Of a DNA stretch of 64,000 bases, positions 27,978-32,005 are shown piece by piece (the stretch's first letter is position 1; each line of letters starts with the position of its first letter). The translations under genes were made by a program, and so were the position numbers. The notes under the pieces were generated by a model that worked only from the letters and a program-made list of their open reading frames with translations, was not told the DNA's origin and made no database searches. Origin of the DNA: Shigella phage SHSML-52-1; sequence record KX130865; one strand, written 5' to 3'.

Positions 27978-28580
27978 ATGCGAAACCAAAATAATGATAT
28001 TGACTCAATGTTCGAAGAGTTCCGAGATAAGGTAAATCCACCTACGTCTTTAGTTGATTCATTACGATATGTTGCAACCGGACGTAAATGGTACTGGTCG
28101 TCTTCTTATGAGACCACCGAGAAAACGGCTAGCCATAGCAGAAAATCTTTATTAGCCCCAGGTATTATGATTCATGATATCGGAGCTATTGCTAAACTAG
28201 TTGCAGACCATGATATTAGATTCACTGATTTCGTTGCTCCTACGTGGTCTGTTTGTTGTTTAAACACTGAATGGGAATATATCAGCGAACGCTCTGAAGA
28301 TTATTATGGTTTTAGAGATAAGCTTCTGAGGTCTAATATGTTTTATATCGATACAGAAGTTCTAGTCGATAATAAAAAATATTACTTTACGTTAATCATC
28401 GATTCTGAAACTATGTATGAAGGCAAGCCTTTGCTTAAAAGAGTTGATGCTTTAAGTGCTATTGATGCGCTTTATGAAACTATGGTTGTTAGTCCTAATT
28501 TCACTAACAATTTAATCCTTGAGCAATTTATTATGGAATGTAGAGAATATGTCAAAGCCAACCCTATACATGCCAAGTAA
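27978..28580 (+). CDS. hypothetical protein (C-terminal FIMECRE tail)
   Basis: 200 aa from ATG 27978 (AAGGAG SD); C-terminus overlaps the start of the next gene. Confidence 0.55.
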   Translation: MRNQNNDIDSMFEEFRDKVNPPTSLVDSLRYVATGRKWYWSSSYETTEKTASHSRKSLLAPGIMIHDIGAIAKLVADHDIRFTDFVAPTWSVCCLNTEWEYISERSEDYYGFRDKLLRSNMFYIDTEVLVDNKKYYFTLIIDSETMYEGKPLLKRVDALSAIDALYETMVVSPNFTNNLILEQFIMECREYVKANPIHAK

Positions 28581-28944
28581 GCCTTGGGCCTACGAATACA
28601 AACGTAAATTAATCCCGTATGAAGTATTATTTGGTCCTATTTTAGCTTTAGCATTTTTAATCTTTATGATTATAGGAGCTATTTTAGATTCTAGTGAAGT
28701 TATATCGTCTGATGCAGCGTTTTCATTAATGTTCGTCGCACCATTTATTGTACCGTTTTTATTAATGCCTATTAATTGGGTAGGATATTGGCACCAAGGC
28801 CGTCATCACAGAGCCCGATTAAGAGAATGGAAAGTTCAGTGCGCAAAAGCCCAAGCTCAGTATGATGAAGCTGTTAAAAAGTATGAATATGAAGAAGCTA
28901 TGGAATTCGTTAAGGAAATAAGATGCAAAAGCCTCAACTCTTAA
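28549..28944 (+). CDS. small membrane protein, FxKExR-tail family member A
   Basis: 131 aa; two hydrophobic helices; C-terminus EFVKEIRCK overlaps the next start. Confidence 0.5.
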   Translation: MSKPTLYMPSKPWAYEYKRKLIPYEVLFGPILALAFLIFMIIGAILDSSEVISSDAAFSLMFVAPFIVPFLLMPINWVGYWHQGRHHRARLREWKVQCAKAQAQYDEAVKKYEYEEAMEFVKEIRCKSLNS

Positions 28945-29282
28945 CCGTATGGCCTTCTCTTGGTGAGAACATTCTAATTTTTATTATGAGTATTGGCATG
29001 GGATTTGCCTTTGGATTAGTTGGATTTCTTATTGACGGCGTTGTGTTAGGATTTATAGGGAACACTGGTGGATTCACAGACCAATGGCAGGACTTACGGT
29101 ATACCCAAGCCTTTGCATCCATCGCATCATTTTGTACTGTAGTCTATTTTTACTACGATTTTATAAACCACAACAAGAAAAATAAAAAGGTTTACGCTTC
29201 TCAAATGATTAGTTATAATGAACTCCTAGCTAGACGTGAAAATGAAACAATCGAAAACTTTATTAAGGAATGTAGAAAATGA
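28923..29282 (+). CDS. small membrane protein, FIKECR-tail family member B
   Basis: 119 aa; hydrophobic N-terminal half; ends ...ENFIKECRK with ATGA overlap to next gene. Confidence 0.55.
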   Translation: MQKPQLLTVWPSLGENILIFIMSIGMGFAFGLVGFLIDGVVLGFIGNTGGFTDQWQDLRYTQAFASIASFCTVVYFYYDFINHNKKNKKVYASQMISYNELLARRENETIENFIKECRK

Positions 29283-29584
29283 GTAAGATTATTGAAATTA
29301 AAGTACCAGAGTTTAATGATGCCAAATCCGCTTCAGATGCAATTTATAAACTTCTGAATCAAGCTGAACGTATCGAAGAAGAAGCAACAAAGATCGCAGA
29401 CCAATATGCCGTATCATTTTCTGTAGGTGATTATGGTAGCGGTCGTACTTATTATCCTAAGGGTGAAATCGTATCCCAGTGGATGAAAGATGAAATTGAA
29501 AATAATGGCGGCGATGTTAAGCGTGAAGGTAATGGATACGTTATTACTGAAGGTGCTTGGGTTTCGTCTTCTGCGTTGTGCTAA
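29279..29584 (+). CDS. hypothetical protein, WVSSS-x-x-C tail family (1 of 3 tandem paralogs)
   Basis: 101 aa ending GAWVSSSALC. Confidence 0.55.
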   Translation: MSKIIEIKVPEFNDAKSASDAIYKLLNQAERIEEEATKIADQYAVSFSVGDYGSGRTYYPKGEIVSQWMKDEIENNGGDVKREGNGYVITEGAWVSSSALC

Positions 29585-29593
29585 GGAATCATT

Positions 29594-29866
29594 ATGTCTA
29601 AAGAACAAACCGAACTGGCTGAAGCTGTAGCAAAAATCTATGCCGCTATTGAGGCTGCCAAAGAAATTGCTGATAAACAAAACACAACATTCAACTTGTA
29701 CCCAGCTTATGGTATGGGTGGAACCTATCATTCACCCGGACATCTTAAAGCCGATCTTGAACGTTGTACAAAAAACGGTTATGCCGAATGGGCTGACGTT
29801 TACCAATACGACTACAACCTGAGCCTCGAAACTGGTGGTTGGGTCGCATCTTCTCACACTTGCTAA
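29594..29866 (+). CDS. hypothetical protein, WVSSS-x-x-C tail family (2 of 3)
   Basis: 90 aa ending GGWVASSHTC; 9-nt intergenic spacer with AAGGAA SD. Confidence 0.55.
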   Translation: MSKEQTELAEAVAKIYAAIEAAKEIADKQNTTFNLYPAYGMGGTYHSPGHLKADLERCTKNGYAEWADVYQYDYNLSLETGGWVASSHTC

Positions 29867-29875
29867 GGAAACAAT

Positions 29876-30073
29876 ATGTCTCGTGAATTAGATTGTGCTG
29901 TACGTACGGCAGTAGCTGCTCTGGAAAACCTGTTCCAAATTGCAACAGAAGAACGCGAAGAAGTTACATTATGGATTGAAGATAACGCAGGTCTGAATCT
30001 CCAGGACGCGATCTCATTATCCCACAATAGTATCACTTTTCAAGGCTGGGTATCATCTAGTTATTCTTGCTAA
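29876..30073 (+). CDS. hypothetical protein, WVSSS-x-x-C tail family (3 of 3)
   Basis: 65 aa ending QGWVSSSYSC. Confidence 0.5.
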   Translation: MSRELDCAVRTAVAALENLFQIATEEREEVTLWIEDNAGLNLQDAISLSHNSITFQGWVSSSYSC

Positions 30074-30077
30074 AACA

Positions 30078-30116
30078 GTTTACAACAAGATAGGGCTATG
30101 TTATAGTAGTCCTATC
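30078..30116 (+). promoter_or_regulatory. early promoter cassette (ATAGGACTATGTTATAGTAGTCCTAT family)
   Basis: GTTTAC 30078-30083; TATAGT 30102-30107 within an imperfect inverted repeat. Confidence 0.55.
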
Positions 30117-30135
30117 AAAACAAATGGAGTCCACA

Positions 30136-30375
30136 ATGATTTATTACGAAAGTATCGGAACCAAAGTGGTTGGTAAAACCATTACTCGTGAAAAGTTTGC
30201 AAAGATATTCGATATGCGTTATAAAAAATCTGAACACAAAGGCATCCGATTCGAAGATGCGCACTGTACAATTTGCCCTTATAATGAAGACATAAACGGT
30301 ACAATCGTTCCATTGGTAGAGGCTTCACATGATGACCTCTGGGATGAATATAATATCGCATGTCGTGAAATTTAA
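30136..30375 (+). CDS. hypothetical protein
   Basis: 79 aa from ATG 30136. Confidence 0.45.
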   Translation: MIYYESIGTKVVGKTITREKFAKIFDMRYKKSEHKGIRFEDAHCTICPYNEDINGTIVPLVEASHDDLWDEYNIACREI

Positions 30376-30403
30376 GTTAATGAATTAATCCGAGGAAAAT
30401 ATT

Positions 30404-31360
30404 ATGATGTTAGTTATTGGTTCTCGTGCACTTCACTATCACGGTCTTATTGATTCTAGCGCTATTAAAAATAGTGATTGGGACTTTATTGCGGACCAAG
30501 GTTCTTGGAATGCATTCAAAAATCAAATGATGGGTGTATATGTTCACCAAGATAACCCTGATGTCCAAGTTTTCAAATGCTTCCATAATGGACGCGAAAC
30601 TCATTTTGAAGCATACATCGTTCCGGCTATCACTAACGTTCGCGAACTAGTCGGTGAACTCACTCCTGAAGATTTCACGTCTTCTTATGACCTTTTAAAA
30701 TACGCCAAGAAAAATTTGACTAAAGACCGTTTGAACGGGTTTTACTGGGCAACTCCTGAGATATGTCTTGCAATTAAGATGTCTCATCGTTTCAAGAAAA
30801 ATAATCCATTCTTTTTAAAGACTATGAACCATATTCAGTATCTTCGTGGTAAAGGTGTTACACTGAACGATGAACTTACTGAAATTATGCTGAAGCGCCA
30901 GAAAGAAACCTTGAATTATGCTCACCCAGTTCTTGACACTTCTAAAAGTGCGTTCTTTAAAGATGACATCTATACATATGACCATGATACTATTCATGAA
31001 GCCATTGCACTAACAGACCGTCCAGCGTATACATTTTATATGAAAGATGGTTCTGAAGTCATGACCTCACGCGAGAAGTTCGAATCATTACCAGAAATGG
31101 TCAAATTGGCCGGCGTATACGAAGAATCATGTGTACTAGCGTTAGAACGTTCTCAGATTCCTAATAATTTTGAAATCCATCCACGTGATAGTTTTATGAT
31201 GGCCCTTGAAAAGGTCTGTACATCAATCACATCAGGATGGTTCCGTGAGTTCGCTTGGGAAAATTATAGCAAAGTAGTAAGTATGTACCAAAGCTTAGGA
31301 CACGACGATTACGTCAAGCGTTTCAAACAAAACTTTCATATGGTAAAACCTTTCAAATAA
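30404..31360 (+). CDS. hypothetical protein (318 aa)
   Basis: Long ORF with AGGAAAA SD; N-terminal GS...SDWDF loosely resembles a nucleotidyltransferase motif but the spacing is atypical. Confidence 0.6.
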   Translation: MMLVIGSRALHYHGLIDSSAIKNSDWDFIADQGSWNAFKNQMMGVYVHQDNPDVQVFKCFHNGRETHFEAYIVPAITNVRELVGELTPEDFTSSYDLLKYAKKNLTKDRLNGFYWATPEICLAIKMSHRFKKNNPFFLKTMNHIQYLRGKGVTLNDELTEIMLKRQKETLNYAHPVLDTSKSAFFKDDIYTYDHDTIHEAIALTDRPAYTFYMKDGSEVMTSREKFESLPEMVKLAGVYEESCVLALERSQIPNNFEIHPRDSFMMALEKVCTSITSGWFREFAWENYSKVVSMYQSLGHDDYVKRFKQNFHMVKPFK

Positions 31361-31699: not shown

Positions 31700-32005
31700 A
31701 TGAAATTAGGCGAAACCAACCGAATTGGTCTTTTAACAATATTTGTATCACTTTTTTACGCAGCTCTTTCTGTTGCAGTATTACAAAAGGCTTACAGTAT
31801 GGATGGTGTTCCTGGTTTTGTATTCTTATCGCCGTTTTTGCTATTCGTTGGAGCATTGTTATTATATGCCACGACTAGTTTCGACCATAACGTCTGGGTC
31901 AATTATAAATGTAAATTGTCTGAAGAAGAACACGCAGAAGCTCGTAAAAAAGCTATTGAATCTACCAATCTAGAAAATTTCATTAAAGAATGTCGAGGAA
32001 AATAA
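31700..32005 (+). CDS. small membrane protein, FIKECR-tail family member C
   Basis: 101 aa; two hydrophobic helices; ends ...ENFIKECRGK two nt before the next ATG. Confidence 0.55.
   Translation: MKLGETNRIGLLTIFVSLFYAALSVAVLQKAYSMDGVPGFVFLSPFLLFVGALLLYATTSFDHNVWVNYKCKLSEEEHAEARKKAIESTNLENFIKECRGK

Follow-up and report, generated by a model that had tools for sequence, protein, structure and literature searches.

The question raised by one locus of Shigella phage SHSML-52-1 (sequence record KX130865) is why three consecutive small genes should encode proteins that finish on the same few residues. The stretch analysed here, referred to as the window, comprises 64,000 nucleotides (nt), and the three open reading frames (ORFs) concerned, ORF1 to ORF3, lie between positions 29279 and 30073. 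The original prediction, made from the letters of the window, had described them as tandem paralogs ending GAWVSSSALC, GGWVASSHTC and QGWVSSSYSC. The coordinates, the + strand, the lengths and the tails were all confirmed, and a TAA stop directly follows the Cys in each of the three, so that every protein ends on this residue. Each ORF is preceded by an AAGGAA Shine-Dalgarno sequence 5-6 nt ahead of its ATG, and each carries the C-terminus W-x-x-S-S-x(0-3)-Cys followed by a stop. A six-frame scan of the whole window found the W..SS..C-stop pattern in these ORFs and nowhere else, and its chance expectation from amino-acid composition is about 1e-5 per ORF. The tail observation is real and highly non-random. 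The trio belongs to an extensive group of acidic proteins, confined to phages, that are small (about 50-150 amino acids) and end W-x-x-S-S-x(0-3)-Cys-COOH, and together with one nucleotidyltransferase these proteins form a two-component, phage-restricted module in which small proteins with variable bodies and a constant tail accompany a single enzyme. The components of the module in the window are as follows.

29279..29584, + strand: ORF1, 101 amino acids, acidic with an isoelectric point (pI) of 4.6; phrog_899; GDYGSGRTYYP subtype of the Cys-tail family
29558..29581, + strand: tail of ORF1, W94-V-S-S-S-A-L-C101, then the stop codon
29594..29866, + strand: ORF2, 90 amino acids, pI 5.0; phrog_899; YGMGGTY subtype of the family of ORF1
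29840..29863, + strand: tail of ORF2, W83-V-A-S-S-H-T-C90
29876..30073, + strand: ORF3, 65 amino acids, pI 4.2; phrog_4882; tail present, YGxGxTY motif absent
30047..30070, + strand: tail of ORF3, W58-V-S-S-S-Y-S-C65
30404..31360, + strand: DUF7277+DUF7275 protein of 318 amino acids, a predicted Pol-beta-fold nucleotidyltransferase with a MenT/AbiEii-like shape

The nucleotidyltransferase gene, which begins 330 nt past the ORF3 stop and is co-oriented with the trio, is the main context overlooked in the original prediction. Arrays of the same kind were found in other phages: five consecutive ORFs of VR26 end GAWVSSSAMC, GGWVSSSSEC, TSWVSSSYEC, GFWFNSSMSC and KIWYPSSC, while Klebsiella phage AmPh_EK29 carries five tailed ORFs, Pectobacterium phage PM2 three and Xanthomonas jumbo phage XbC2 two, each array lying just upstream of a homolog of the window ORF 30404-31360. 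The arrays consist of 1-6 different subtypes, co-oriented with one DUF7277/DUF7275 gene immediately downstream. In a survey of 80 viral contigs anchored on the enzyme (anchor protein 40-98% identity), 73 contained at least one tailed ORF upstream on the same strand. There were 197 tailed ORFs in this position, at a median distance of 821 nt from the enzyme gene, versus 3 among the 6083 ORFs elsewhere (Fisher p ~1e-117, a value inflated by relatedness among the loci). When the enzymes were dereplicated at 80% identity, 45 groups resulted; a scripted filter detected tailed ORFs in 42 representatives, and two of the remaining three groups also proved to be tailed on inspection (L028, L030 and L035, group-mates of L027, and L033, which has one tailed ORF). 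The linkage was tight in the reverse test too, with the enzyme gene just downstream in 32 of 34 small-family loci and the other two loci ending at a contig edge. Phage phAPEC8 (Stephanstirmvirinae) keeps the pairing, as do four of the five phage-like contigs of metagenome-assembled genomes that were the only matches in a search of 185,579 bacterial and archaeal species genomes. A third conserved gene family was sought across the 45 groups and none was found, the next best occurring in 11 of 45.

The catalytic motifs of the enzyme are intact. Thirty diverse homologs keep G6-S7, D25-x-D27 and E69, the Pol-beta nucleotidyltransferase signature, and the motifs hG[GS] and DxD and the third acidic residue that mark the Pol-beta fold are present in the 318-amino-acid protein. 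Its predicted structure is closest to MenT toxins and O-nucleotidylyltransferases. The helical C-domain (DUF7275, 200 residues) is strikingly conserved among the 30 homologs, with segments such as GVYEExCVLALERS and KVCTSITSGWFRE. The family occurs in 732 phage records, and sequence searches of the PDB with the enzyme returned nothing. Three other assignments were considered and discarded. RlaP (PF10127), an RNA-ligase-associated nucleotidyltransferase family described previously (PMC7824862, PMC12776372), is absent from a Pfam scan at E-values up to 1; the label "prohead assembly scaffold protein" on some enzyme homologs is contradicted by the fold; and the label "sulfurtransferase" in phage JK42 belongs to an e.4-like membrane protein and is unsupported.

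The small proteins form a much larger group than the trio suggests. A word-indexed search with alignment retrieved 57 proteins, and an exhaustive profile search at E-values up to 1e-3 retrieved 714 clusters, with matches that reach the last position of the profile and almost always end at the last residue of the protein. ORF2-type proteins were found in 281 phage records by tblastn and ORF3-type proteins in 250. In an alignment of 36 diverse homologs, Y52, G55, W94, S97, S98 and C101 (ORF1 numbering) are invariant and A36, D41, G53, T57, Y58 and G92 nearly so; conservation is highest in the C-terminal eight residues, whereas the bodies differ. Among 194 representatives the median pI is 4.5, and 182 end on Cys, seven have one residue after it and three are fragments. 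The terminal Cys is the sole Cys in 108 of the 194, the spacing from Ser to Cys varies from 0 to 3 (SSC included), and in six representatives further W..SS.C units lie inside the protein, three at most in any one of them. A subgroup of tails (L116 6280-6540; P0086, P0088, P0150, P0152) places the Cys at the penultimate position, as in WVSSTQECN and WISSTQACR; in the same proteins the third Ser is replaced by Thr, which resembles a coordinated variant of the tail.

Regarding kinship within the trio, the original prediction of three paralogs stands for two of them. ORF1 and ORF2 match phrog_899 (E 1.3e-22 and 5e-19, family hidden Markov model (HMM)), while ORF3 matches phrog_4882 (E 1.2e-36) and has no phrog_899 match. 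Pairwise BLASTP among the three is weak (E 2e-4 to 2e-3) and dominated by the tail, and the comparison was repeated after removal of the last 12 residues, with subtype HMMs built from homologs. Trimmed ORF2 still matched the ORF1-type HMM (22.9 bits, E 3.6e-9) and trimmed ORF1 the ORF2-type HMM (30.7 bits, E 1.5e-11); trimmed ORF3 showed no detectable similarity to either (1.7-3.6 bits). Profile-profile alignment with hhalign gave the ORF3-type a probability below 1% against every other subtype with tails trimmed and 80% with tails kept, and several other subtypes reached 73-97% with tails trimmed. Single-linkage BLAST clustering (E 1e-4) joined the trimmed ORF3-type to the rest, a result that the profile tests did not confirm and that was not relied on. 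The original prediction would have been abandoned if similarity stopped at the last 10 residues; between ORF1 and ORF2 it extends well into the body, and ORF3 resembles them over the last ~15 residues only. Judged from these profiles, ORF1 and ORF2 are genuine old paralogs with the same fold, and the only connection of ORF3 to them is the tail, along with a comparable layout in which the helix comes first. It may be a minimal member that has diverged, or it may have acquired its tail separately. In Gaprivervirus and Marfavirus all three have separate orthologs, arranged in the order seen here; Mosugukvirus carries ORF1- and ORF3-type orthologs, and ORF1/ORF2-type relatives are present in the unrelated phAPEC8. 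The ortholog sets in other genera indicate that the split of the three types is old, and the tandem duplication that had been read from the junction DNA is not a recent event.

The N-terminal helix and Gly/Tyr-rich middle that had been proposed for ORF1 and ORF2 (GDYGSGRTYYP and AYGMGGTYHSP) were borne out by alignment and by the AlphaFold2 (AF2) model of ORF1, which has a mean predicted local distance difference test score (pLDDT) of 91.8. In this model a long helix (15-43) precedes a beta-sheet; the GDYGSGRTYY hairpin comes directly after the helix, then a short helix, and then three further strands, with W94 in the final one. The predicted fold common to ORF1 and ORF2 starts with an amphipathic N-terminal helix, continues with the YGxGxTY hairpin and closes with a strand bearing the Trp; ORF3, possibly a minimal member, keeps only the helix-like N-terminus and the tail. 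The predicted fold has no match in the PDB, and scans of the three ORFs with Pfam, NCBIfam and PADLOC gave nothing meaningful; matches to Peptidase_S78_2, E217_Gp32, PDC-S49 and Cas8b were all far below the cut-off. A weak match of the family profile to lacto-N-biose phosphorylase (PDB 2zus/3wfz, residues 647-704; E 0.028, domain E 0.28) is non-significant and was read as a beta-hairpin motif that the two share, and not as homology. This match contains DYGKGRGVY (ADGGQVQLATNDYGKGRGVY)...AAWSSSNPEC, with both family motifs in the same order. PHROGs lists phrog_899 and phrog_4882 as "unknown function" and files ORF3 apart from ORF1 and ORF2. The small-protein fold and its tail have no characterised relative.

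In the reading favoured here, to which a probability of roughly 0.45 is assigned, the nucleotidyltransferase would have the tailed proteins as partners through their tail, with a role as its substrates preferred. The tailed proteins would act together with the enzyme, which would recognise the constant tail as a common handle. The tail would most likely be the site of a covalent modification, the enzyme transferring a nucleoside monophosphate or a nucleotide-derived group onto it, and each paralog, through its variable body, would then have a separate downstream task in host takeover or counter-defence in the early or middle phase of infection. A role as substrates or carriers is favoured because the never-varying residues are nucleophiles (two Ser hydroxyls and the terminal Cys thiol) beside a Trp, because the W..SS.C unit is repeated internally in some members, and because several ortholog-stable paralogs have one tail and one enzyme in common. 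Put more broadly, the tailed proteins are probably substrates of the enzyme or else its regulators. A bolder version, possible though on the doubtful side, is that they represent a novel kind of substrate or carrier protein made on the ribosome, whose W-x-x-S-S-x-x-C end the enzyme would modify covalently by O- or S-nucleotidylylation or with a nucleotide-derived prosthetic group; elimination and closure of a thioether might follow. One enzyme could in this way arm up to six phage effectors of different shapes.

Several results weigh against this partnership. MenT-type enzymes are known to act on tRNA 3' ends and not on proteins (PMC10435456). For the 318-amino-acid protein, a Pfam scan at E-values up to 1 gave only DUF7275 and DUF7277, with no DUF1814/AbiEii and no match to any characterised protein-modifying family. 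AF2 places the tail of ORF1 inside the fold, as a strand (93-96) and a helical turn (97-100) with a pLDDT of ~90; with a folded tail and no free peptide, a structural or ligand-binding role fits equally well. One lineage of ~140-150 kb phage contigs (L048, L051, L054 and L076) has the enzyme without any tailed ORF, and no tailed ORFs accompany the remote homologs in Gordonia and Streptomyces phages, which have just the C-domain in common with it. In the window itself, a promoter- or terminator-like site and an unrelated 83-amino-acid ORF separate the trio from the enzyme gene.

The simplest alternative is that the tail is a functionless by-product of the junction between stop codon and ribosome-binding site, or of recent tandem duplication. 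The similarity of the junctions, the one point in its favour, is real: the first two (29552-29599 and 29834-29881) share 75% identity across a 48-nt stretch and take the form TGCTAAGGAA-N5-ATG, reading TGC TAA GGAA N5 ATG, and the third keeps TGCTAA alone. The conserved stretch amounts to the Cys codon, the stop, the Shine-Dalgarno sequence and the start, and nothing more. Since the Shine-Dalgarno sequence is placed after the stop, it puts no constraint on the codons of the tail. Among 127 non-identical tails from many phages, all six Ser codons, TCN as well as AGY, are found at the two invariant Ser positions, the terminal Cys is encoded by TGC in 81 and TGT in 46, the stop is TAA, TGA or TAG, and GGAA is missing from many junctions. 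These synonymous codons, varied stops and frequent absence of GGAA indicate selection on the peptide, and the tail is retained in the 714 clusters across distant phages; the by-product explanation is refuted by the codon analysis and can be given almost no credence. Chemically more ambitious, and still improbable, is the idea that the proteins are precursors resembling ribosomally synthesised and post-translationally modified peptides (RiPPs), in which S-x-x-C-COOH would become a lanthionine or aminovinyl-cysteine (AviCys) thioether after activation of Ser, possibly by nucleotidylylation, and elimination. The invariant tail residues are exactly Ser and Cys, the W..SS.C unit is repeated in some members, and the spacing from Ser(-3) to Cys(0) at a free C-terminus is that of AviCys-forming peptides such as epidermin. 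However, the variable spacing, which includes SSC, does not suit this chemistry; the logic of leader and core is reversed, with a constant "core" and a variable body; the proteins are predicted folded domains, unlike leader-core peptides; and among the neighbours in the 45 loci, which were not scanned individually with Lan HMMs, there is no conserved dehydratase, cyclase or LanD-like flavoprotein.

Two further explanations are unlikely and deserve closer weighing. The tailed proteins could be antitoxin-like regulators that bind and block or time a MenT-like enzyme acting on host tRNA 3' ends or other nucleic acid, with the tail as an unmodified docking epitope or pseudo-substrate. A small gene upstream on the same strand, encoding a long N-terminal helix, resembles the arrangement of MenA1/MenT1; the genomic linkage is tight in both directions; and tRNA genes or a polynucleotide kinase lie near some loci. 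Yet up to six divergent, ortholog-stable paralogs per enzyme would be unexpected for a one-to-one inhibitor, the invariant Ser, Ser and Cys are unlike typical interface residues, comparison with MenA1 and other antitoxins showed no likeness in sequence or in fold, and the lineage retaining the enzyme without a tailed protein fits poorly with this role. Alternatively, and with a similarly low likelihood, the proteins might be effectors independent of the enzyme, active in takeover or anti-defence, whose tail is an intrinsic site for a metal or small molecule (Cys thiolate and carboxylate with Ser, Tyr and Asp) or an oligomerisation clasp, the linkage reflecting shared regulation or hitch-hiking in a mobile cassette. 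The confident AF2 placement of the tail within a folded domain, the acidity of the proteins, the position in a hyperplastic early region between e.3 and e.2 that is missing from T4, and the promoter-like site of its own ahead of the enzyme gene in the window are all in keeping with such independence. Hitch-hiking, however, fails to account for a linkage that outlasts the turnover of every other neighbour in Straboviridae, Stephanstirmvirinae, jumbo phages and metagenomic lineages. In addition, a single Cys, as found in more than half of the representatives, is insufficient alone for a metal site, and the ORF3-type keeps the tail without the other conserved motif.

Known systems offer two precedents, by analogy, for a small protein that accompanies such an enzyme, namely a helical inhibitor encoded upstream (MenA1/MenT1) and a small acidic substrate. 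At the level of the module, MenAT/AbiE-type systems are nearest. MenA1 is a 68-amino-acid helical protein encoded upstream of MenT1 that blocks the MenT1 active site (PMC10435456). MenAT1 and AbiE (MenT1-MenA1; AbiEii-AbiEi) are found on bacterial chromosomes, whereas the phage module belongs to lytic phages, has 1-6 divergent small proteins per enzyme, and has an enzyme without a DUF1814 match and with its own very conserved DUF7275 helical domain. The tailed proteins were compared with MenA1 and with COG5340 AbiEi/MenA3, and no relationship emerged. As for a substrate, MdcG modifies the invariant Ser25 of MdcC, an acidic alpha/beta protein of ~10 kDa without a close structural homolog (PMC5534430), and MdcG is related to an ancient nucleotidyltransferase class according to reference 14 as cited in that article. 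The pairs MdcG/CitX and MdcC/CitD are alike to the phage module in carrier size, acidity and invariant Ser, which is a functional analogy only: MdcC, CitD, MdcG and CitX have no sequence, Pfam or NCBIfam match to either phage partner, and no MdcB/CitG-like precursor synthase is conserved near the phage module. Moreover, the Ser-Ser of the phage tail lies at the extreme C-terminus beside the terminal Cys, whereas the Ser of MdcC/CitD is on a loop, and the phage module has several paralogous "carriers" per enzyme, unlike the MdcG/CitX systems. The MNT-HEPN pair has a gene order that is the reverse of that of the phage module. Its small partner HepT is modified on a Tyr. A HEPN identity of the phage small proteins was rejected, as ORF1 has no His and hence no RxxxxH motif. 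In work attributed to Yao et al. 2020 and Songailiene et al. 2020, the minimal nucleotidyltransferase MntA reportedly AMPylates the paired HepT, a second case of a small protein that serves such an enzyme as substrate.

Searches of the literature turned up no account of the common tail, of the arrays or of their linkage to the enzyme, and no paper on DUF7275, DUF7277, PF23940, PF23942, phrog_899 or the RB69 ORF names. The module occurs in hundreds of sequenced phages, among them phages of Escherichia, Klebsiella, Enterobacter, Acinetobacter, Aeromonas, Pseudomonas and Stenotrophomonas and several jumbo phages, and both of its components are annotated only as hypothetical proteins or DUFs. The pairing of the small proteins with a MenT-like enzyme turns an anonymous hyperplastic block of T4-type phages into a concrete two-component hypothesis. 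Covalent modification of the tail, if shown, would be a categorically new system, not described in any virus, and either outcome would provide a new mechanism for the biology of phage-host conflict and an annotation for many orphan genes.

The surrounding region is 98-99% identical to genomes of Mosigvirus, the RB69-like T4-type phages (FP43, ATK47, APCEc01). The trio is placed between an e.3-like membrane-protein gene, whose TGA stop is overlapped by the ATG of ORF1, and a block ending at e.2 and nudE. The original prediction, in which the tail was not recognised from any characterised T4 family, agrees with the gene content of T4 (NC_000866; L129 3653-4320). There e.3 abuts e.2, and the block of trio, 83-amino-acid ORF and enzyme gene, which in the window runs from 29279 to 31360 or beyond, is missing at this position. 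Three further features of the region are listed below.

29191..29219, + strand: promoter-like site TTTACG-N17-TATAAT, from a consensus scan only, inside the e.3-like gene at its 3' end, ~60 nt ahead of ORF1
30078..30107, + strand: T4-early-like promoter candidate GTTTACA-N17-TATAGT, with TG, from a consensus scan, between ORF3 and the 83-amino-acid ORF
30124..30375, + strand: 83-amino-acid ORF, phrog_3723, no Cys tail; its conservation with the module is limited to close relatives

The annotation of phage SA79RD has a T4 middle promoter at the place equivalent to 29191..29219 and a terminator at that of 30078..30107. Going by the two promoter-like sites, separate transcripts may carry the trio and the nucleotidyltransferase gene in this phage. 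The true start of the 83-amino-acid ORF is probably at 30136.

The counterparts of ORF1, ORF2 and ORF3 in RB69 are RB69ORF139c+138c, 137c and 136c, respectively. In the RB69 reference (NC_004928; L130 1485-1791), the ORF1 ortholog is split into ORF139c (71 amino acids) and ORF138c (33 amino acids), a frameshift or sequencing error parting the body from the Cys tail. If real, this split is a natural variant and suggests that ORF1 is dispensable in the laboratory. As to the four contigs that have the enzyme without tailed ORFs, the enzyme gene appears intact and no Cys-tail ORF lies within 2.6 kb upstream.

A second C-terminal motif, F-[IV]-K-E-[CI]-R-(G/C)-K, was observed in the e.3/e.4-like membrane ORFs that flank the trio (NFIKECRK, NFIKECRGK and EFVKEIRCK). 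It occurs in the window in the ORFs at 28519-28944, 28923-29282 and 31700-32005, and elsewhere at L004 763-1128 and 2203-2511 and at L005 914-1276, 1276-1653 and 2278-2499. Its AAG-GAA codons double as a Shine-Dalgarno sequence, after which comes the ATG of an overlapping downstream gene (for instance 29264-29282, AAGGAATGTAGAAAATGA). The tail of these membrane ORFs may be a by-product of translational coupling, the very artefact that had been feared for the Cys tails.

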